DNA of 64,000 nt from IMG/VR virus record IMGVR_UViG_3300044957_000619. The stretch is one strand, 5' to 3'. This document shows positions 4,130 to 30,298 of the stretch, one piece after another; within the stretch, counting starts at the first letter, position 1; each line of letters begins with the position of its first letter. Below the pieces are notes generated by a model. The model was not told the origin of the DNA, did not search any database, and worked only from the letters and a program-made list of their open reading frames with translations. A program made the translations under genes and the position numbers. This DNA comes from a virus.

Positions 4130-4314
4130 TATTCTGATTTAGATTCTGCTAATTGAGTTGAACGATACTTACTGGCTAATTTTTTAACTTCATTGATTGC
4201 TTTACGTGCTCTAACGCCCGCAGCCTTTACCCCTTTGTCGGTAAATCTTTCGTGATTTTCTTTAAATACTAACCAATGTTGTTCGATTTGATCAAAAATT
4301 TCTTGTGATGTCAT
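4129..4314 (-). CDS. Histone H1-like (Hc1-type) small basic protein
   Basis: KGVKAAGVRARKAINEVKKLA matches the GNKAAGTRARK signature of Bacteroidota histone-H1-like proteins; likely start MTSQ at 4314. Confidence 0.75.
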   Translation of the reverse strand: MTSQEIFDQIEQHWLVFKENHERFTDKGVKAAGVRARKAINEVKKLASKYRSTQLAESKSE

Positions 4315-8361: not shown

Positions 8362-8700
8362 TCATGATTTTTTGGTGAATGTTAAAGTTACTCCCCAACC
8401 GACCGTAATTTCAATTTTCGATTCACCTTGCTTAATTGCAGTAACGAGCTTGTTTAAATCGGCAATATCTATTTCTTCTGTTTGATCGGCATTGGTTGAT
8501 ACATAGTATTTTTTTTCTTTTTTCCAAATAGACGTTATGCCAACCGGCCCGTTATATGTTAGTGACGACATGGTAACGCGATACGTGACAACGTTCCCAT
8601 CCCATGATGCTTGTATGGGGCCGCCGGCGGGATTAGCAGCTTTAAGTGTTACTCCATTGATGTTGATTGATTCGATTAATAAACGTTTTAATTGTATCAT
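8362..8700 (-). CDS. Hypothetical protein with N-terminal tag
   Basis: Likely start MIQLKRLLIES at 8700, 4 nt after ATATTTAT motif. Confidence 0.6.
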   Translation of the reverse strand: MIQLKRLLIESININGVTLKAANPAGGPIQASWDGNVVTYRVTMSSLTYNGPVGITSIWKKEKKYYVSTNADQTEEIDIADLNKLVTAIKQGESKIEITVGWGVTLTFTKKS

Positions 8701-8923
8701 ACTTATAAATATTGGTTTCCGCAATATATTGCTGGAAACGAGACGGCCTCGACTTTATAATAAATACTATATACGCTGGGTTCGGCCTTAGGAGTATGCG
8801 CTAGATGATCTAGGAAGGATTATATGACACCGTCATATTCAATAAAGAGCACCTATATAGCAAAAAATCTTACCGCGCGGCAAAAACATGCATAACCTCC
8901 CGCATCATCTTGGGGGTGGTCTA

Positions 8924-9050
8924 CCCCTTTAACGAAACTCTCCCCACCCCCCCTATTTGACCCCCCCGATCACCCCTTAACACACCCCCATACACCACCC
9001 CCCATACCCCCATAAAAAAAGGGGGGCTATTGCCCCCCCATGATCACCCC
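8924..9050 (-). repeat. Cluster of ten C4-C7 runs (G-runs on minus strand), G-quadruplex-forming potential
   Basis: C-runs at 8924, 8942, 8947, 8961, 8973, 8985, 8998, 9007, 9033, 9047 in an otherwise AT-rich genome. Confidence 0.8.
9014..9039 (-). terminator. Rho-independent terminator closing the early cassette array
   Basis: Minus strand GGGGGGGCAATAGCCCCCCTTTTTTT. Confidence 0.75.
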
Positions 9051-9069
9051 ATTTAAATCAGCGGCACCT

Positions 9070-9324
9070 TTACGCGGCCCGGGTCTCTGATTGCGATGCT
9101 CTTAACTCGGCAGCTGCTATGTTATCAGGATGACGGAAGTCTTGTTGTATACCTAACGTCTCCATCACGTGATATATGGCACACCACTTAATGCCACACC
9201 ACTTACCTCTGAGGCGATCGGTTAATGCATCTTCTGCACCATACCATTGCTGTGCCATCATGTAACGTAAATATGCTTGGGCTTCTTGATTCTGGATCGC
9301 TTGGATCATGTTCTGCTTTGTCAT
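9070..9324 (-). CDS. Hypothetical early protein (cassette)
   Basis: 84 aa behind promoter repeat R1; internal 15-nt duplication (KWCGI-KWCAI). Confidence 0.65.
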   Translation of the reverse strand: MTKQNMIQAIQNQEAQAYLRYMMAQQWYGAEDALTDRLRGKWCGIKWCAIYHVMETLGIQQDFRHPDNIAAAELRASQSETRAA

Positions 9325-9417
9325 TGTCTTTCTCTTTTAATTAATAATAATAAAGATAAGAAATATGTTTCATATATCCTAATCTTTTAGCAACTTTTTT
9401 TACTTTTTTTTATAGCA

Positions 9418-9444
9418 GAAATCCGACGCCTTTCGACGCCGGAT
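9418..9444 (-). terminator. Hairpin, probable terminator after the AAA ATPase
   Basis: ATCCGGCGTC-GAAA-GGCGTCGGAT-TTC. Confidence 0.6.
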
Positions 9445-9466
9445 CCTGGTTTGAGAAATATGTGTT

Positions 9467-10417
9467 CTAAGCCGGGATGATTTGTTCTGCAATCATCATT
9501 TTTGGATTCTCAAAGCCCATTGCACATATGCGTGCTGCTTTGATAAAGCTACGCAGGTTGATCTCTACGCCATCAAACTCTGCATCAAGCTCCTTCATTA
9601 ATGTCAATGCCTGCTCTTTTGCTGGCATCGGAATGCGACGCTCCATTGTTACCATCAACTGCGACATTCTGGCAAACATCTGATCCGTTGTCAATGCAAC
9701 ATCACTTACAAAGCTTCGGCTGCGGATTGCTTCATCCAAGCGGCTTTGGTTGATGTTGGAGATAAAGATGATGCGTCCTGTGAATTCAAAATGACGTGGT
9801 ATTTCACTACCAAACTCGTCTTTAAGAGTCTTTGTGGAGATGTAACTTAGCCTGCGGGTGTCATAAGAATCCAAAGCCGCTTTGAGGATATTAACTGCAT
9901 CATCATCTTTGAATACCGAATCACAGTCATCCAACACAATAACCTTGTCGCTATTCTCATACAGCGTAATAAACAAGCCTGCAGGCGTAGCACGACCCTT
10001 GAAGTGAACAAAGTCGGTAGACTCCTTAAGGCCCAATGACTCCAATGTACTCTTAACCAAATGCGTCTTGCCCGTACCGGCACCTCCGGTAATAACAAGT
10101 GACGGCTGAATGCCGCGCCCTACCATTTTAGTTAGACGCTCAATGTTTGCAAACATCTCCTCCGGGTCCTGGGTTTGCTTGGTTTGCATAAAGGACATCT
10201 TGACAGCCGGAGGTGGTGTCAATGCAACACCCATATCAGCGGCAGGGACTCTGGTAACACGTCCCGTTGCGGATACTACTAATACCTCACGGTTCTTCTC
10301 AGCATTCAGCAGCTGGATGTGTCGGATGGTGTCCTTAGTCGCTATGCTACCTGTGGTTGTGTTCTTAGCAAACAACTTGCCTTTAATTCTAACTGGTTCA
10401 AAAACATTACTCATCAT
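9467..10417 (-). CDS. AAA+/P-loop ATPase
   Basis: Walker A GGAGTGKT, Walker B VIVLDDCD, sensor IFISN, arginine finger AIRSRS. Confidence 0.85.
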   Translation of the reverse strand: MMSNVFEPVRIKGKLFAKNTTTGSIATKDTIRHIQLLNAEKNREVLVVSATGRVTRVPAADMGVALTPPPAVKMSFMQTKQTQDPEEMFANIERLTKMVGRGIQPSLVITGGAGTGKTHLVKSTLESLGLKESTDFVHFKGRATPAGLFITLYENSDKVIVLDDCDSVFKDDDAVNILKAALDSYDTRRLSYISTKTLKDEFGSEIPRHFEFTGRIIFISNINQSRLDEAIRSRSFVSDVALTTDQMFARMSQLMVTMERRIPMPAKEQALTLMKELDAEFDGVEINLRSFIKAARICAMGFENPKMMIAEQIIPA

Positions 10418-10503
10418 GTATCTCTCTTTTTAATTATACTTAAAGATAAGCAAAAAAAGAATGCGATCCAACCGTTTCGCAAACTTTTTTCAAACTTTTT
10501 TTT

Positions 10504-10782
10504 CTAGTTGCCGATATTGTTGAAATCAAAATCATTGACAATGGCATTGATTGCGGATCCGCCATGCTGCGCAGCATGCTTTTGGCCAGCTACTTGGGAC
10601 AACGCCCGGGCAAAGTCTGGAAGGTCACCCTTTGCCTTTGCAACAAGCAACATTTCCATCAAATGGCCCAACAACACAAAGTCTTTATCGTCGGTTAGCA
10701 TTGCTAACACCTCAGCATTGGTTTGAGCATCTGTTACGTTCTGGATTAAGTCCCTAGCTAACTGTTCTTGCATCTTGTTCAT
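10504..10782 (-). CDS. Hypothetical early protein (cassette)
   Basis: Behind repeat R3. Confidence 0.65.
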   Translation of the reverse strand: MNKMQEQLARDLIQNVTDAQTNAEVLAMLTDDKDFVLLGHLMEMLLVAKAKGDLPDFARALSQVAGQKHAAQHGGSAINAIVNDFDFNNIGN

Positions 10783-10863
10783 CGCTCTCTTTTTAATTAT
10801 ACTTAAAGATAAGTAATATGTTTCATATATCCTAATCTTTTTGCAACTTTTTTTAAACTTTTT

Positions 10864-11043
10864 TTAAACTTTTTTTAAGCCTAATTCAGCTGCTACATAA
10901 TTAACATGTTTGGTGGTTGTCTTGCTCCAGTAGCCCAATACAAGTAACTTGTTGCCATTAATGGTTGCTACATGGGTAGTATAAGAAATAACTCGATCTC
11001 CGTCTATTCGAAGATTCTTTTTGTAACGATTCAATTTTTTCAT
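10864..11043 (-). CDS. Hypothetical early protein (59 aa)
   Basis: Likely start MKKLNRY at 11043 after AAAAAGAGAG leader; SYTTHVA...YWSKTTTKHVN phage-type motif. Confidence 0.65.
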   Translation of the reverse strand: MKKLNRYKKNLRIDGDRVISYTTHVATINGNKLLVLGYWSKTTTKHVNYVAAELGLKKV

Positions 11044-11045
11044 GT

Positions 11046-11100
11046 GCTCTCTTTTTACGTCCGCAAGGGCCGACATTGCTGCCGACCCGGGACTGAGAGA
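11046..11100 (-). promoter_or_regulatory. Structured 5' leader sequestering the AGAGAG element
   Basis: Nested pairing CTCTC/GAGAG, GTCC/GGAC and GGGTCGGCA-GCAA-TGTCGGCCC. Confidence 0.55.
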
Positions 11101-11141
11101 TATAGCAAAGATTTTAGCATTGCAATTTGTTAATTGTTCAA

Positions 11142-11495
11142 TCAAATACAAGCTTGGTTCCGGAGACCATACATCATATCGTCGCTTTCCTCAAATATGT
11201 TTTCCATTGTCTCGCGTATCGCTGCAACTATGCGATTCGTGTTTATAGGCACACTCGCCAATACAATGGTGTTGTGATACAAATCAAACTCAGCATTGTC
11301 AAAATCAACTATGTCGCTGCTGTACAAATTGCCAATGGCTTTATCTACAACATCCATTATTTTGTCAAACGACTCGTTATTTAATAGGACCTTTTCTTCC
11401 AACTGCTGGATAAGGGCAATTACTTGGTCGATTGACACTACTGATGTTAATGCCTTTGCTGCTTCTAATTGTGCTACTAATTCTTGTTTTTTCAT
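11142..11495 (-). CDS. Hypothetical early protein (cassette)
   Basis: Behind repeat R4. Confidence 0.65.
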   Translation of the reverse strand: MKKQELVAQLEAAKALTSVVSIDQVIALIQQLEEKVLLNNESFDKIMDVVDKAIGNLYSSDIVDFDNAEFDLYHNTIVLASVPINTNRIVAAIRETMENIFEESDDMMYGLRNQACI

Positions 11496-11559
11496 CGCTT
11501 TTTTTTTTGGTTTTGTGGGACTATTCCCTTTTTAATTATACTTAAATTTAAAGAAAAAA

Positions 11560-11715
11560 TCAATGCGATCCAACCGTTTTATCTTCTAGTTTTGAAAAAT
11601 TTTGCACTACTATTTGGCACACTTCACATAGTATCTGGTTATCTTCGATTCCTACGGCTTCGAGGAAGGTGCATAAGTCAATTTGAATTTGTTCTTTTAC
11701 TTCAGCTTTTGTCAT
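11560..11715 (-). CDS. Small hypothetical protein (51 aa)
   Basis: Not in ORF track; MTKAEVKEQIQIDLCTFLEAVG...; stop lies inside repeat R4. Confidence 0.55.
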   Translation of the reverse strand: MTKAEVKEQIQIDLCTFLEAVGIEDNQILCEVCQIVVQNFSKLEDKTVGSH

Positions 11716-11815
11716 GGCTCTTTTTGATTTATTTACTACTTTTTTTTGCTGCGGCTAATCAACATCATGATTAGCACCACATTGAGCAACAAGCTCATAT
11801 ATACTATCTTGCCTA

Positions 11816-11965
11816 TCATACTCCAATGTATACGGCACCTGTGGTTCCTGTTACTAACTTGTAAACAATAAAGGCAATGCCAAATACAAATAACCCGGTG
11901 CATGCTACTGCTAATGCTTTAAGGGTTACTGCTACTACGTTCTCGATGCTAAACACTTTTTTCAT
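11816..11965 (-). CDS. Small membrane protein (49 aa)
   Basis: Not in ORF track; MKKVFSIENVVAVTLKALAVACTGLFVFGIAFIVYKLV..., directly behind repeat R5. Confidence 0.65.
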   Translation of the reverse strand: MKKVFSIENVVAVTLKALAVACTGLFVFGIAFIVYKLVTGTTGAVYIGV

Positions 11966-12058
11966 TTTTCTCTCTTTTTAATTATACTTAAAGATAAGCA
12001 TTTTTTCAATGCGATCCAACCTTTTTTCAAAAAAAGTTTCAAAAAAGTTATTCACAAT

Positions 12059-12118
12059 CTTGCAAGTTTTTTAACTTCATTGATTGATTTGCGCGCTCTA
12101 ACGCCAGCTGCCTTTGTC
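12059..12118 (-). other. Out-of-frame fragment of a histone-H1-like gene allele
   Basis: 49/57 nt identical to 4172-4228; reads KAAGVRARKSINEVKKLA; nearly all mismatches synonymous. Confidence 0.8.
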
Positions 12119-12310
12119 TATGAATTCAATAACATATTCAAACAGCGCTGGATCATCAATATCAAATCCATCTTCATCTCGGAACACCGTATCGATTACT
12201 TTACCGCGCTCATCTAAATAATCAGTAACCGTAACTATGTTACCTGCTGTCAATTGAACCTGGTACCTTTCTGTAGTGATCGTTTCTACATGTTTACTAA
12301 CTAACTTCAT
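12098..12310 (-). CDS. Hypothetical early protein (cassette)
   Basis: Behind repeat R6; last codons come from the captured H1 fragment. Confidence 0.65.
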   Translation of the reverse strand: MKLVSKHVETITTERYQVQLTAGNIVTVTDYLDERGKVIDTVFRDEDGFDIDDPALFEYVIEFIDKGSWR

Positions 12311-12393
12311 TTCTCTTATTTTTTAATCATACTTAAATTTAAGGACTAAATCAATGCGATCCAACCGTTTCGCAAACTTTTTTCAAACTTTTT

Positions 12394-13131
12394 TTACAGG
12401 TATTGCTCAAGCAATTTGATGCCTGGAAGTGCAGCCAATGCCTCCTCAGCCTGACGAACCAATTGTCGTGCACGCTCATTTGTGATGCCCATCTCCTCAC
12501 CAATCTGCTCCATGCTCTGTGCATACTCAAACCCTAATCCATAATTACGACGCAATGCTTCTGCTTGCCTAGGCTTCAATTGTGCCAATGCTCTATCAAT
12601 GTCAAACTGCAGATCCGCGCGGTCTCTGCTGCTGCGCACCTCATCGGCTGCTAAGTATCGATCCGCATATGTCTCTTTGTTCTCATCATCGCCTACCGGA
12701 GTGGAAATGCGCTTGATGGAGTACTCTTCGGTAGCCGTACGGTGTGATGGAATCCTTACTGTGCGAGACAAATCATTAAGGGCCTTCTGCAACTCGGCGC
12801 GGATATACCATACTGCAAACGTAATGAATTTAACATTCTTGCTGGTATCAAATCGATCCACAGCCTCAAACAATCCAATGTTGGCAAATGCTATAAGATC
12901 TTCCATCTCCAAGCCCATGCCCTGATACTGACGGGCCACTTGCACCGCAAACCGCAAATTGCTTTCTATTATGGTATTGCGTGCCTTAAGGGAGCCTGCC
13001 TGTGCTGCTTGGATTAACTGGGTCTCGTCTTCTCTGCTAATGACCCGAGCCTTCTTTATCTCGGCTACATAACGCTTTGTGGATTCGGCGCCTACTATTG
13101 CACCATTTGTAACATTGATTCTTCTTTTCAT
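12394..13131 (-). CDS. Sigma-70 family (RpoD/SigA-like) RNA polymerase sigma factor
   Basis: Region 2 NLRFAVQVARQYQGMGL..DLI...NIGL..AVDRFD...KFITFAVWYIR, RTVRIP, region 4 HTH SMEQIGEEMGITNERARQL; no region 1.1. Confidence 0.92.
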   Translation of the reverse strand: MKRRINVTNGAIVGAESTKRYVAEIKKARVISREDETQLIQAAQAGSLKARNTIIESNLRFAVQVARQYQGMGLEMEDLIAFANIGLFEAVDRFDTSKNVKFITFAVWYIRAELQKALNDLSRTVRIPSHRTATEEYSIKRISTPVGDDENKETYADRYLAADEVRSSRDRADLQFDIDRALAQLKPRQAEALRRNYGLGFEYAQSMEQIGEEMGITNERARQLVRQAEEALAALPGIKLLEQYL

Positions 13132-13134
13132 AAC

Positions 13135-13210
13135 GCTTATTTCTTTTTGTATATTATACCGGGTTTCTTGCTCTAGGGTTACCTTTTTTTCAAACTTTTT
13201 TGAAACTTTT
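13135..13210 (-). promoter_or_regulatory. Second-class promoter upstream of the sigma gene
   Basis: A-tracts-GGTAACCCT-N13-CGGTATAAT; related GGTAACCCT...GGTTATTTAT at ~14340-14372. Confidence 0.5.
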
Positions 13211-13221
13211 TTAGCCCCGCA

Positions 13222-13407
13222 CTATTTTACTATGTGGGGTTTCTGTAATGCTGCTTGAGCTTCTCTGTAAATGCGGTTGCGTTCTGCTTGTGCCATTGCA
13301 TGTTTTACTGCTGCATTTAATTGCTGAGGACGTTTTGCATCTGCCAACAACCGGGCTGACACTGCATCTTGCTTGAAAAATCCTGAATTCTTTTTGCCTA
13401 CTGCCAT
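13222..13407 (-). CDS. Hypothetical early protein (cassette)
   Basis: Behind repeat R7. Confidence 0.65.
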   Translation of the reverse strand: MAVGKKNSGFFKQDAVSARLLADAKRPQQLNAAVKHAMAQAERNRIYREAQAALQKPHIVK

Positions 13408-13624
13408 ATCTCTTATTTTTTAATTATACTTAAATTTAAGGACTAAATCAATGCGATCCTAATCTTTTGCAAACTTTTTTTGAAAAAGTTATTCACAATT
13501 TTCTGCTTCATCTGCTTCAAGTATTCTATCGATATACTGCCGGATTAGTCAAGCAATTTTTCGTTTTCATGGCGTTTTGTTTCAATGTGCGTTACGGATG
13601 CGCACCCCCCCCCGGATTGGTAAT

Positions 13625-13861
13625 TTATTGATTGTTAATAATATCGTTTACTAATTCATGAGCGTCATGCCATTGAGCCCAACGTGTAAGTGACCGAATG
13701 TATTCGGGTGATTCTTTACCCAAATGCGTCTCGCAAAGATTCAAGAAGTCCCGCTCTTGTCTTTGTCGTAATCGTAATTGCTCAAGGATAAGGTCCAACT
13801 TGATTTGTGCGGTCTCTTGCGCTTGTTCGCCGGTGTTGTTTTGTTGGTTCATTGTTTCCAT
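13625..13861 (-). CDS. Hypothetical early protein
   Basis: 78-aa ORF, second gene of the R8 cassette. Confidence 0.6.
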   Translation of the reverse strand: METMNQQNNTGEQAQETAQIKLDLILEQLRLRQRQERDFLNLCETHLGKESPEYIRSLTRWAQWHDAHELVNDIINNQ

Positions 13862-13867
13862 GTTGTT

Positions 13868-14035
13868 TTATTCTTCTAATTGATCTATAACTGATTTAAT
13901 TACACCTTCTAAATATCCATAACAATATGCTCCGGTCAACAACGTTCCATCCGCTTTCTTAGCCCATCTTTCTTGAGCTACAGCTAGTTTCTTTTTCAAT
14001 GATGCTACTAATGCTTTTTTTTCTGCTTTTGTCAT
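13868..14035 (-). CDS. Small hypothetical early protein (55 aa)
   Basis: Not in ORF track; MTKAEKKALVASLKKKLAVAQERW...YCYGYLEGVIKSVIDQLEE directly behind repeat R8. Confidence 0.7.
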   Translation of the reverse strand: MTKAEKKALVASLKKKLAVAQERWAKKADGTLLTGAYCYGYLEGVIKSVIDQLEE

Positions 14036-14129
14036 TTTACTCTCTTTTTAATTATACTTAAAGATAAGAAAAAAAAGAATGCGATCCAACCGTTTCGCAA
14101 ACTTTTTCCAAACTTTTTTTAAGTTTCAA

Positions 14130-14351
14130 TTATCCTACTTCTTTTTCTTCTACTGAGGCGTATGTGTCTCTTCCGTGTGCACTATACGTCTCAAGGATCA
14201 TGTTTTTCTCTCGAGCTATTTTTTTAAGTTCCCACAGTGCATCTTTTTCCTTTTCATAAACTGAAATTGAAACCCAATCCGGTTCGCTGAACATTAACAC
14301 AAAAACTGTTTTTCTTTTTATCTGTCTTATTTTAATTTTATAAATAACCAA
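14130..14351 (-). CDS. Hypothetical protein, start uncertain (possibly degenerate)
   Basis: Protein-like from KTVFVLMF; the annotated upstream part overlaps a promoter-like sequence. Confidence 0.4.
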   Translation of the reverse strand: MVIYKIKIRQIKRKTVFVLMFSEPDWVSISVYEKEKDALWELKKIAREKNMILETYSAHGRDTYASVEEKEVG

Positions 14352-14375
14352 AATTTTGTAAAGGGTTACCCTTTT

Positions 14376-14774
14376 TTATAAAAAAAGTTTTGAAAAAGTT
14401 TCAGCCGTTTTAAGTGGACCTTTAAAGTCATTTTCACGTCCCCATATTTCAGCTAAGCCGGAGTGGCTGCACTTAGGAATTACTGTATATACTACATTAC
14501 ATGTCTCGATATTGCATATACGGAAATCATCATACAATGGGCCGCGGCCCGGGCAATTGTTTTTGAAGAATACATAATGATCCAAAAGATCAATGTCATA
14601 CGCTTTAACAAAGCGCTCGGTTTGTTTCATCAACGTCCGGGCTTTGCGCGCTAAAGATGAATCCTTGCAAAACCAATCATAGAAATTGAAACATTTTGAT
14701 TGACTCCCATCGGCATCTAATATTAAGCCATTTGCTTGGGCATTTAATTGATCTGCTAAACTAACTCTGTTCAT
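14376..14774 (-). CDS. Hypothetical early protein (cassette)
   Basis: FYDWFCKD...YVFFKNNCP...LYDDFRICN; behind repeat R9. Confidence 0.7.
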   Translation of the reverse strand: MNRVSLADQLNAQANGLILDADGSQSKCFNFYDWFCKDSSLARKARTLMKQTERFVKAYDIDLLDHYVFFKNNCPGRGPLYDDFRICNIETCNVVYTVIPKCSHSGLAEIWGRENDFKGPLKTAETFSKLFL

Positions 14775-14864
14775 TTCTCTTATTTTTTAATTATACTTAA
14801 AGATAAGCATTTTTTCAATGCGATCCAACCAAAATCCAAAAAAAGTTTAAAAAAAGTTATTCAC

Positions 14865-15026
14865 AAAAAAAGGGCGACCGAAGCCGCCCATGGTACACGC
14901 CTGGGAATAAGAGAGAGAAACCCGTTGGTCATGTTACCCATAATGAGACGGGATCGAGGTGTTAGCGCTAACACCATGGTGGTTACGATCCCGCCAAGTG
15001 TGAAGGTCGATACTATCGATCCCGTC
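14865..15026 (-). ncRNA. Structured RNA / long 3'-UTR ending in a terminator
   Basis: 11-bp stem GACGGGATCGA/TCGATCCCGTC, palindrome GGTGTTAGCGCTAACACC, competing GGCGGGATCG copy, CU-rich segment, terminator GGGCGGC-TTCG-GTCGCCC-T7. Confidence 0.55.
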
Positions 15027-15027
15027 G

Positions 15028-15111
15028 TTATTTTCTTTTGTATTCTCGGTATGCGATCGCCGCAATCAATGCAATCAACGTCGTCATCCAAACTATAAAT
15101 AATAGCATCAT
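15028..15111 (-). CDS. 27-aa single-TM peptide (type I toxin-like)
   Basis: MMLLFIVWMTTLIALIAAIAYREYKRK; TTGGA...TTTCATATAAT promoter directly upstream. Confidence 0.55.
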   Translation of the reverse strand: MMLLFIVWMTTLIALIAAIAYREYKRK

Positions 15112-15212
15112 TTCCTTTTATTATGCTCATATTATATGAAATACGCGCACATAATCCAACCACAATACAAAAAAAGTTTGCGCTGTATAGCTAGAGAACC
15201 AAACGAAACCGG

Positions 15213-15747
15213 GTCTAAAGCCTGGTTTTGGTCTAAAAATAACGCATATTGGACTAAAAATCAAACCGGCTTTGCTCTAAAAATAATCTAAAAATAACGC
15301 ATATTGCTCTAAAAATAGCGGGAGGGTGCGGATATTGTGCTAAAAATAACATGTTCAGATCACTAGCTATACAGACGCGCGCATAGCATCTAAAAATAAA
15401 GCTGGTATTAGATTCACTATATATAGAGCGCATGATGGACTAAAAATAACAGCCACTCGGACTAAAACGTAACCAGGGAGATTGGGGTCGAGTCCGTTAA
15501 AACCAGCTGATATTGATCTAAAAATAGATGCACCCGTATACTGGCTCTTACAGTTCGTTTAAGAACATTGTAGCCCTTTTGGAGTCTAGATATTCGTGAA
15601 ATGGGAATAAAGAGTCTATGCCCCACGAAAACATGTAACACCGGCAGGGAGATATCTTAAAGATCTTGCTGGTAGCTACTACACACTAAACTTTGCTTTA
15701 CATATCGTAATAAGACTATTAACATTACGTGTATCCATCTAAAAATA
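15213..15747. repeat. Iteron-like CTAAAAATA repeats in an ~800-bp non-coding region
   Basis: Exact copies at 15233, 15277, 15288, 15309, 15340, 15390, 15440, 15518, 15739 plus variants at 15215, 15254, 15462; 20-bp direct repeat TCTAAAAATAACGCATATTG at 15232 and 15287. Confidence 0.85.
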
Positions 15748-15970
15748 CGCGGGGAGAGGGAGCCATACTAGACTCCGTTTTGTGTCTACCAGGACTAGTA
15801 ACGCAATCAAGGATACCTGGATAAAGTGGGACTTGTGTGTTTACAAGCGTTTATACTTCGTGCATACTTATATTGTATACTTGCTTATGCTTGCTTCGTA
15901 TATGCTTACCGAGTTGCATTCTTCAGTATCCGTAAACATTACAATGCTACGGCTACTACGTAGTTTAACA

Positions 15971-16192
15971 TTACTTATCTAATTTGATTTGATGATCATC
16001 AAGTATCTCATAGAACTTAGCTCTGATTCTTTCTACCATTGCCCATTCCTTTGCATCTAACTCTTCATACTTGCATAGTGTTCTAAGTTCTTGAGAAATG
16101 TCCCAAAGTGCTGCATACATATTACTCCCTTGAACCGCAAAGTCGAAGTCTGCTTGGTCTTCTGGTAAATTAAAGGTTAATTTTGCTTTCAT
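15971..16192 (-). CDS. Hypothetical protein (MKAxLxFNLPED phage family)
   Basis: 73-aa ORF. Confidence 0.65.
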   Translation of the reverse strand: MKAKLTFNLPEDQADFDFAVQGSNMYAALWDISQELRTLCKYEELDAKEWAMVERIRAKFYEILDDHQIKLDK

Positions 16193-16193
16193 T

Positions 16194-16610
16194 TTATTCT
16201 GATTTAATTACGATTTCATAACCCGCTTCACTTTTCAATGAAACAAATCCAGTAACCGTTTTGCCTTTGAATGCTTCATTAAACTGTCCCGTATCCATGC
16301 CCGTTGCAATGTAAGGTCCACCTGATGGATCAACCATATCAATTGATTCGGTATCGCTGTATACCAAGTGCATGTATTTTTTTGCAAGCTCGGTATATGA
16401 AACTGCTTCATTGTCCCGCTCATGTACTAGCGTTTTAAATACCAATTCACTTTCAGTGCCGCCGTCAGCTACATATTGTGCATAGACATCATCATATGCA
16501 TTAGGCCAACTGCAACGATGCCATTCGAAGTTACCAGTTCATTTAATGTTGCCATTTGGCATTGTGTGAAAGTGATGTGCATCACCATATCTGTTTGTGT
16601 AATTTACCAT
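16194..16610 (-). pseudogene. Hypothetical gene with in-frame TGA at 16539-16541
   Basis: MVNYTNRYGDAHHFHTMPNGNIK*TGNFEWHRC... continues in frame into ORF 16194..16445 (MVDPSGGPYI motif). Confidence 0.65.
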
Positions 16611-22362: not shown

Positions 22363-22410
22363 ATTCTTTTTTTATATAAAATAAAATTGCTTTTACATAT
22401 CCAACCAAAA

Positions 22411-28826: not shown

Positions 28827-28884
28827 ATGCTCTTTATTTTATATAAAATATGAAATTACTATTCAGTTTCCAACCAAATACAGC

Positions 28885-28910
28885 AAAAAGGCGACATTTC
28901 TGCCGCCTCT
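28885..28910 (-). terminator. Rho-independent terminator after the MoxR ATPase
   Basis: AGAGGCGGCA-GAAA-TGTCGCCTTTTTG. Confidence 0.7.
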
Positions 28911-28925
28911 TTGAGCTATGAAAAA

Positions 28926-30101: not shown

Positions 30102-30148
30102 AACTCTTTATTTTCTATAAAATATGAAATAAAGCGTTACATTCCAAC

Positions 30149-30262
30149 CTATTCTTCTTGTTTTTTATGTTTTTTCTTGCGGGTGTAAGATTTTTTACTT
30201 TTCTGAATAATTGGACGCGTTGCTTGCCAAATTTCTTGCATAGTTACTTCAATCTTTTTCAT
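30149..30262 (-). CDS. Small basic protein (37 aa)
   Basis: Not in ORF track; MKKIEVTMQEIWQATRPIIQKSKKSYTRKKKHKKQEE. Confidence 0.55.
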   Translation of the reverse strand: MKKIEVTMQEIWQATRPIIQKSKKSYTRKKKHKKQEE

Positions 30263-30298
30263 GGTGCTAATATATGAAAATGTTTCGTGAAATTTAAA

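Follow-up and report, generated by a model that had tools for sequence, protein, structure and literature searches.

Recombining promoter-like copies and turnover of small genes in an array of an uncultured T4-like myovirus

The locus described here raises the question of how a run of unrelated small genes, each standing behind a near-copy of one promoter-like element, is built and rebuilt in a phage genome. It lies in a 64,000-nucleotide stretch (the window, to which coordinates refer unless stated otherwise), which corresponds to bases 71384-135383 of the 158,320-bp IMG/VR virus record IMGVR_UViG_3300044957_000619, a genome with direct terminal repeats that is rated complete. PHROG matches to a tail sheath, a gp23-type major head protein, a portal and a family-B DNA polymerase assign it to the T4-like myoviruses, and the minus strand carries nearly all genes of the genome. 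The array is a block of about 5.8 kb with approximately 15 small minus-strand open reading frames (ORFs) within 9020-14889, and canonical intrinsic terminators frame both of its ends (14872-14889 and 9020-9039). We propose that it is an early-type, ORFan-rich hyperplastic region of an uncultured T4-like myovirus whose copies act as preferred crossover sites, and we put the probability of this explanation as a whole at roughly 0.75, with the early timing judged from motif and position. The shuffling of genes at such repeats, suggested in the first-pass annotation of this DNA, is already published for T4-type phages as modular shuffling mediated by promoter early stem-loops (PeSLs).

A genome-wide nhmmer search with a profile of the copies revealed exactly nine copies of an element of about 90 nt, all on the minus strand and all in the array, where they span 9326-14864 and are co-oriented with the genes. 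The 18-mer TTTAAGTATAATTAAAAA occurs eight times in the genome with up to two mismatches, in the array only, and the 19-mer TTTAAGTATAATTAAAAAG has eight matches in the window with up to three mismatches, versus 0.33 expected by chance. Every copy stands directly ahead of the ATG of a minus-strand ORF, which confirms the nine copies before small genes of the first-pass annotation. No match to the array was obtained by blastn among 50,697 phage records. The copies, in the order in which they are met on the minus strand, are as follows.

14772-14864, minus strand: R9, with a T-tract-oriented upstream part, GGTTGGATCGCATT and a TATCTTTA box
14033-14123, minus strand: R8, promoter-like copy found by nhmmer
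13405-13497, minus strand: R7, a hybrid of R5/R9-type, R1/R3-type and R6-type blocks
12308-12401, minus strand: R6, promoter-like copy found by nhmmer
11963-12057, minus strand: R5, 88% identical to R9 over 103 nt
11524-11603 by nhmmer, 11496-11603 with its longer leader, minus strand: R4, without the A-tract part
10782-10869, minus strand: R3, with an R1-type middle block
10415-10507, minus strand: R2, promoter-like copy found by nhmmer
9326-9418, minus strand: R1, the most diverged copy, which keeps the TATCTTTA box and has no TATAAT

Read along the minus strand, a copy starts at the stop codon of the preceding gene (TAA, TAG or TGA), which lies at the 5' edge of two A-tracts phased at 11 bp in most copies. 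These are followed by GGTTGGATCGCATT or a variant of it, a variable block of 9 nt, CTTATCTTTA or CTTAAATTTA, AGTATAAT, then TAAAAAGAGAG or TAAAAAATAAGAGA and, after 3-4 nt, the ATG; the box lies about 22-24 nt from the start codon. The element as first drawn holds in that the copies are present. Its GTTGGATCGCATT part, however, is exact in six copies only, as R7 has TTAGGATCGCATT and R1 and R3 have another block at this position, and its TATAAT is missing from R1.

The copies are visibly patchworks of one another. All the shared blocks named in the first-pass annotation (R1 with R3, R6 with R7, R5 with R9) and the hybrid nature of R7 were found. When the nine copies are aligned, 351 of the 1128 informative site pairs conflict with any single tree, and neighbouring sites are more mutually compatible than distant ones. 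The pairwise homoplasy index (PHI) is 0.218 versus 0.327 ± 0.021, a value reached in 0 of 5000 permutations. Therefore, the mosaicism is the product of recombination or gene conversion among the copies, and not of descent by duplication alone. In addition, the copies are homogenised within a genome: in 589 of 630 comparisons a paralogue from the same genome is closer than the orthologous promoter (mean identity 0.85 versus 0.65), this being a comparison of the best of many against one.

Single exchange events can be read from close relatives. Using the AAA ATPase (9467-10417), we retrieved 29 related IMG/VR metagenomic loci of 59-94% protein identity, and each of the 29 carries 2-16 co-oriented copies of the element. 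The close relatives compared for insertions and deletions (indels) are 94-99% identical. Loci L001 and L003, which are 95% identical over 8 kb, differ by three array indels of about 190, 1204 and 267 nt. All three lie between two copies in L001, and L003 has a single copy instead, which is of the left-copy type upstream and of the right-copy type downstream, with the switch inside the conserved core. A fourth indel, between L010 and L011, again opposes two copies to one chimeric copy, and the homology overlap at these four indels is 52-86 nt. Two copies in one genome against one left/right chimeric copy in the other is the signature of homologous recombination between copies, and bears out the earlier suggestion that the repeats serve as recombination anchors. 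Replacements show a similar placement. Between L008 and L011 both edges of a replacement between adjacent promoter copies fall at copies; in the L008/L010 pair a replacement, again between adjacent copies, has its right edge in a copy and its left edge 37 nt beyond where the preceding copy ends; in one further replacement the right edge alone lies at a copy. The promoter of the AAA gene itself differs block-wise among this genome, L001, L002, L003 and L004, the gene being about 84-89% identical to those of L001-L003.

A dedicated site-specific system, integron- or transposon-like, with the repeat as its recognition site, would also account for unit-like, co-oriented cassettes and for a highly conserved short motif in each copy. 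Against it, searches of the complete genome for tyrosine and serine recombinases (PF00589, PF00239) were negative, and all or most of the control genomes were positive. The copies show no inverted-repeat or att-like structure, with no attC-like inverted repeats among the copies of the array, and the crossover point along the copy varies between events, as expected for homology-driven exchange. With neither a recombinase nor an att-like structure, an integron or other site-specific system was rejected, and we regard it as hardly credible. The array does resemble an integron in being a co-oriented series of small, exchangeable, mostly uncharacterised genes divided by a repeated element, but integrase, attI, attC and a shared Pc promoter are all lacking, every cassette comes with a promoter-like copy of its own, and exchange by homology occurs at variable points. 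The earlier picture of an integron without an integrase is thus right about the missing integrase, and otherwise a loose likeness.

The genome encodes a RecA/UvsX-family protein. We propose that the phage's general homologous recombination, probably through this RecA/UvsX-type protein, crosses over between copies along the ~90 nt that they share. A crossover between direct copies would delete a promoter-plus-gene unit, and such a unit could be inserted by way of an excised circle or a co-infecting genome. Unequal and patchy exchanges would move cassettes, homogenise the copies and swap core types ahead of the same gene.

The genes that are moved are mostly small and without recognisable function. 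Family counts were taken over 21 non-redundant arrays; in the order of the minus strand, the array contains the following features besides the copies.

14872-14889, minus strand: intrinsic terminator with a GC stem, a TTCG loop and a T7 tail, which ends the upstream unit just ahead of the first promoter copy and is kept in L001 and L003
14376-14774, minus strand: cassette gene of 132 aa, family 19, in 10 of 21 arrays, without a known domain
14130-14351, minus strand: small ORF behind a second (type-B) core, likely starting at ATG 14294 (54 aa), found in this genome only
13868-14035 (55 aa) and 13625-13861 (78 aa), minus strand: the two R8 cassette genes, without a match to a family of known function
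13222-13407, minus strand: basic 61-aa protein, family 5, in 15 of 21 arrays and directly ahead of the sigma gene in most carriers
12394-13131, minus strand: sigma-70-family factor of 245 aa with Pfam regions 2 and 4, closest to RpoS/RpoD/SigA, in every array
12098-12310, minus strand: acidic cassette gene product of 70 aa, found in this genome only
12059-12115, minus strand: 57-nt fragment about 86% identical to 4172-4228, at the junction of the 70-aa cassette gene and R5
11560-11965, minus strand: three tiny R5 genes, coding for membrane-type peptides of 49 and 27 aa with overlapping stop and start and then for a 51-aa protein, kept in L001 and L003
11142-11495, minus strand: acidic 117-aa protein, family 3, in 16 of 21 arrays
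10864-11141, minus strand: GC-rich hairpin (between 11044 and 11141) and a leader-only part of the repeat (AAAAAGAGAG), followed by a gene for a basic 59-aa product (10864-11043)
10504-10782, minus strand: cassette gene of 92 aa, family 41, found right after the sigma gene in L001 and L003
9467-10417, minus strand: AAA ATPase of 316 aa (PF00004, phrog_1250)
9416-9448, minus strand: GC-rich hairpin between the AAA gene and R1, R1 being the only copy with an adjoining PeSL-like stem-loop
9070-9324, minus strand: last cassette gene, 84 aa, family 12, behind R1
9020-9039, minus strand: intrinsic terminator with a G7/C6 stem and a T7 tail, at the end of the array

Pfam confirmed the sigma factor (sigma-70 regions 2 and 4) and the AAA ATPase (AAA domain) of the first-pass annotation, and domain and family searches recognised no other domain or family of known function among the cassette proteins. 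The remaining products are small acidic, basic or membrane peptides, for which host-takeover or anti-defence roles are reasonable guesses in the way of speculation. The AAA ATPase has distant homologues in T-even-type coliphages, one of which sits in a run of genes annotated 'thioredoxin'; these labels appear to have spilled over from nrdC.x gene names. A frameshift in the R5 cassette was considered and rejected, as it consists of two overlapping tiny genes that are conserved in L001 and L003. The 57-nt piece at 12059-12115 is a fragment captured at a cassette junction. Many cassette genes start with ATGACAAA (MTK...).

Both the content and the order of the cassettes change among the relatives, the comparison that had been suggested as a check of the shuffling idea. 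In relatives with at least 69% AAA-protein identity, most copies are found within the 5-7 kb that precede the AAA gene, and one copy usually follows it. A backbone of family 15, family 19, family 5 followed by sigma, family 3, the AAA gene and family 12 runs across the gene maps, with many differing small ORFs between its members. The 21 arrays hold 110 gene families, of which 71 were seen once and just four (family 5, sigma, family 3 and AAA) occur in at least 15. Gene adjacency is conserved in 10-14% of pairwise comparisons inside the arrays versus 52% in the flanks. Family 41 stands before the AAA gene here and directly after the sigma gene in L001 and L003, and has therefore moved. The 70-aa gene and the R5 cassette are in reversed order, and family 24, the basic 59-aa gene at 10864-11043, occupies other slots in relatives. 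In the moved cassettes, each block of nucleotide homology begins inside a promoter copy.

Which polymerase might read the copies was assessed by a census of 264 distinct copies from 30 genomes. The box TAnnTTTA is kept in 262 of them (169 with TATCTTTA, 57 with TAAATTTA and 35 with TATATTTA), and T[A/T/G]GG lies 18-20 nt upstream of the box in 201. Among the upstream hexamers TTG is found in about 95 copies and TAG in about 150, TTAGGA being the commonest upstream element. TATAAT occurs in 77 copies only, and many have TATAAAT two bases closer instead. In the window, five copies (R4, R5, R6, R7 and R9) fit TTGAAA or TTGATT, N17 and TATAAT or TATGAT, with 9-11 of 12 positions of the E. coli sigma-70 consensus. 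A reading as E. coli-type promoters (-35 TTGAAA, 17 nt, TATAAT) was nevertheless set aside, as the relatives shift or lose TATAAT and keep TAnnTTTA at fixed spacing; the core kept across the family is thus not the TATAAT stressed earlier. If the host belongs to the FCB (Fibrobacteres-Chlorobi-Bacteroidetes) group, the copies would be host-type promoters of another kind. The flavobacterial sigma-A -7 box is TAnnTTTG at -12 to -5 (PMC9723704), and the family-wide core T[T/A]G-N20-TAnnTTTA fits a promoter layout of the FCB/Bacteroidota type, a fit that does not identify the host. Similar to the Bacteroidota primary-sigma promoters of the Flavobacterium psychrophilum map of transcription start sites (-33 TTG, -7 TAnnTTTG; PMC9723704), the copies have a two-block layout with a TA..TTT box, a T-G element about 20 nt upstream and an A-rich leader, and no strong Shine-Dalgarno sequence. 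They differ in that the box ends in A and the commonest upstream element is TTAGGA, and their phased A-tracts and near-identity are phage features.

The predicted transcription start falls inside AGTATAAT, which would leave about 18-20 nt of A-rich leader, in which no clear Shine-Dalgarno sequence is seen. We infer promoter activity, early timing and reading by the host holoenzyme, and propose that the array would form eleven short transcription units, each headed by a ready-made regulatory unit: two UP-element-like A-tracts in 11-bp phase, T[T/A]GG as the -33-type element, separated by a 20-nt spacer from TAnnTTTA as the -7-type box, and lastly an A-rich leader. On infection, the host RNA polymerase with its primary sigma factor would fire all the copies. 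The set so expressed would comprise a conserved core (the small basic protein, the phage sigma factor, the 117-aa acidic protein and the AAA ATPase) together with changing small accessory genes. Elsewhere in the window, three promoter-like sites of the form GGTTGGA-N17-19-TATTTTATA (28827-28925, 30102-30298 and 22363-22410, minus strand) precede a CobT-like gene, a CobS-like gene and a small ORF. They have the GGTTGGA element and its spacing in common with the array copies, and the rest differs.

The copies could instead be middle-class promoters for the phage's own sigma factor, so that the array is switched on by a factor encoded in it. The sigma-70-family gene, with its RpoS/RpoD-like region 2, is indeed the most conserved gene of the array, and the good matches of R4, R5, R6, R7 and R9 to TTGAAA/TTGATT-N17-TATAAT or TATGAT are in keeping with this. 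In most arrays, however, the sigma gene itself lies behind a copy (in the order promoter, family 5, sigma), and that copy must therefore fire before the phage factor exists. Moreover, TATAAT, with its 77 of 264 copies, is shifted by 2 nt relative to the upstream elements, against the fixed spacing of TAnnTTTA in 262. We consider control by the phage factor unlikely, and prefer the host primary sigma factor as the reader of the copies.

A second core, here called type B to distinguish it from the type-A core of the copies, consists of GG(G)TAACCC followed 17-19 nt on by TATAAT or TATAAA, and lies behind A-tracts similar to those of the copies. It was found at only two sites in the genome, both in the array.

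14352-14400, minus strand: type-B core with GGGTAACCC ... TATAAA behind A/T-tracts, ahead of the ORF at 14130-14351
13132-13212, minus strand: type-B core with A-tracts, GGTAACCC, 17 nt and TATAAT, ahead of the sigma gene

The claim that the sigma gene lies behind a different promoter stands, given GGTAACCC-N17-TATAAT at 13132-13212, but this promoter has a second occurrence before the ORF at 14130-14351. With both genomic sites inside the array, type B as a genome-wide middle-promoter class was rejected. In front of the R5 cassette gene stands a type-A core in this genome and a type-B core in L001; the sigma gene is preceded by type B in this genome as well as in L001 and L003. A doubtful but possible extension is that the array is a timing switchboard, in which type-A (T[T/A]GG ... 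TAnnTTTA) and type-B (GGGTAACCC ... TATAAT) cores are interchangeable within common A-tract and leader flanks, and recombination in these flanks shifts a gene between transcription classes. If type B were read by the phage's RpoS/RpoD-like sigma factor, cassette exchange would rewire expression timing besides gene content.

The closest published system is that of the PeSLs. They were described in phages RB49 and phi1 as repeated motifs between genes, with conservation extending over about 100 bp and a concentration in hyperplastic regions, ahead of ORFans (Arbiol et al. 2010, PMC2839356). Each motif combines an AT-rich tract with a sigma-70 promoter, a terminator in the form of a stem-loop, a Shine-Dalgarno sequence and the start codon (PMC2839356). 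PeSL shuffling was later extended to T4/PST and KVP40/nt-1 and suggested for all T4-like phages (Comeau et al. 2014, PMC4122927). Mini-circles and promoter and terminator activity have been demonstrated for PeSLs (PMC2839356, PMC4122927). Similar to PeSLs, the copies are repeated intergenic units of about 100 nt in a T4-like myovirus. Each runs from an AT-rich upstream part, in which the stop codon of the gene before it lies, through what would be a host-type early promoter and a ribosome-binding region to the start codon. Like PeSLs, the copies cluster in a hyperplastic region ahead of small ORFans, two units flank the indels that separate close relatives and a single chimeric unit is left behind, and general homologous recombination is the proposed agent. 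In contrast, the core kept across the family is T[T/A]G-N20-TAnnTTTA rather than the E. coli sigma-70 consensus TTGACA/TATAAT of PeSLs. A significant stem-loop is missing from seven of the nine copies, and the fold z-scores of the copies range from -0.2 to -2.2. The GC-rich hairpins of the array are confined to its two ends, to the stretch that follows the AAA gene and to a site between 11044 and 11141, and termination would fall to the block ends and one internal hairpin. All copies lie in one 5.8-kb block, PeSLs being spread over many regions, and a second core type alternates with the first. It is well supported that the array is a variant of PeSL-mediated modular shuffling and not a PeSL member, because the stem-loop feature fails in seven of nine copies and the promoter is probably of another type. 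Another parallel is halovirus HF2, a tailed virus in which repeated intergenic sequences are reported to function as promoters, the virus being archaeal and its promoters of the archaeal type (PMC8707807).

Several observations weigh against the reading proposed here. Promoter function and early timing are read entirely from motif and position, and the nhmmer alignments are biased toward the model, so that apparent conservation is somewhat inflated. The last base of the box is A in all 262 box-bearing copies and not the consensus G, and the commonest -33 variant is TAG and not TTG. ORFs in the relatives came from a crude longest-ORF script. Within the arrays, junction conservation is 10% with a copy versus 14% without a detected copy, which is non-discriminating as a hotspot test, partly because of these crude ORF calls and of undetected or type-B promoters. 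Not all recent indels lie at copies. A 189-nt gene indel between L010 (11100-11320) and L011 (11100-11130) is flanked by a 23-nt repeat of leader plus ATGACAAA start, so the homology usable for exchange reaches the first codons, and another recent indel has an overlap of 9 nt only. With at least two recent indels at other short homologies, the copies are preferred crossover sites and not the sole ones. As to the host, Shine-Dalgarno-like motifs precede 39% of the genes here (control 9%) versus 5% in Flavobacterium phage immuto (L036; control 18%), and the host may therefore differ from a typical flavobacterium, which lacks such motifs. GroEL is 58-65% identical to proteins of many phyla, with Bacteroidetes/Bacteroidales as two of the top three and mostly Gemmatimonadota after them, and is not decisive.

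Some of these observations would suit a different explanation, in which the copies are alike solely through selection for a common regulatory sequence (such as an operator at GGATCGCATT), turnover proceeds by illegitimate recombination, and intergenic breakpoints are favoured by selection with no causal part for the repeats. Junctions lacking a detected copy are hardly more stable than copy-bearing ones, some indels lie at unrelated microhomology, and GGATCGCATT is conserved among near relatives beyond the needs of a spacer. Functional selection leaves unexplained, however, why variable-spacer blocks are shared in conflicting combinations, why homology overlaps of 52-86 nt with single chimeric copies lie exactly at the indels, and why paralogues are closer than orthologues. 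We hold this explanation to be improbable and retain homologous exchange between the copies.

A Flavobacterium host is plausible. The capsid protein is closest to that of Flavobacterium phage immuto (57%), followed by a Microcystis phage and Rhodothermus phage RM378. A search of the whole genome of immuto, the nearest cultured relative, found neither the AAA nor the sigma protein, and immuto therefore offers no cultured model of the array.

Further features were seen around the array. Ahead of it, a candidate structured RNA of about 150 nt (14865-15045, minus strand) ends in the terminator at 14872-14889 and is preceded by a 27-aa hydrophobic ORF (15028-15111). Its minimum free energy is -61 kcal/mol (z = -3.95), a value that none of 200 shuffles reached, and an Rfam search of 8500-16500 with E up to 0.1 gave no match, this candidate included. 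Just upstream of the first terminator of the array, about eleven copies of YTATTTTTAGA lie within 540 bp (15220-15760, minus strand), in a region about 74-78% conserved in L001 and L003. Several of them are followed by CAATATGCG, and TATTTTTA itself fits TAnnTTTA; the cluster could represent iterons, operator sites or weak promoters. Directly past the closing terminator, runs of 5-7 G (C on the plus strand) extend over about 115 nt (8900-9015, minus strand), and a comparable stretch follows the equivalent terminator in L014. In addition, a ATATTTATAT(T)AAA motif lies 15-30 nt ahead of many virion genes (for example, in coordinates of the whole genome, G000:C1 6344-6393, 15193-15301 and 23318-23366). 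It resembles the T4 late promoter TATAAATA and likely marks a late-promoter class.

The general picture is unchanged by this locus, as the authors of the PeSL studies had predicted the mechanism to be general in T4-like phages. What it adds is a case of promoter-mediated shuffling beyond the cultured T4-type phages of Proteobacteria, in a clade of aquatic T4-like phages that are uncultured and for which metagenomic relatives alone yielded crossover points at base level. As the promoter here lacks a stem-loop and is probably of the FCB/Bacteroidota type, shuffling would need no more than homology of the promoter unit itself. Screens for host-takeover or anti-defence functions could reasonably draw on the approximately 110 small gene families, whose conserved core of four genes includes a phage sigma factor, and the nine copies are candidate strong, portable promoters for this group of hosts.

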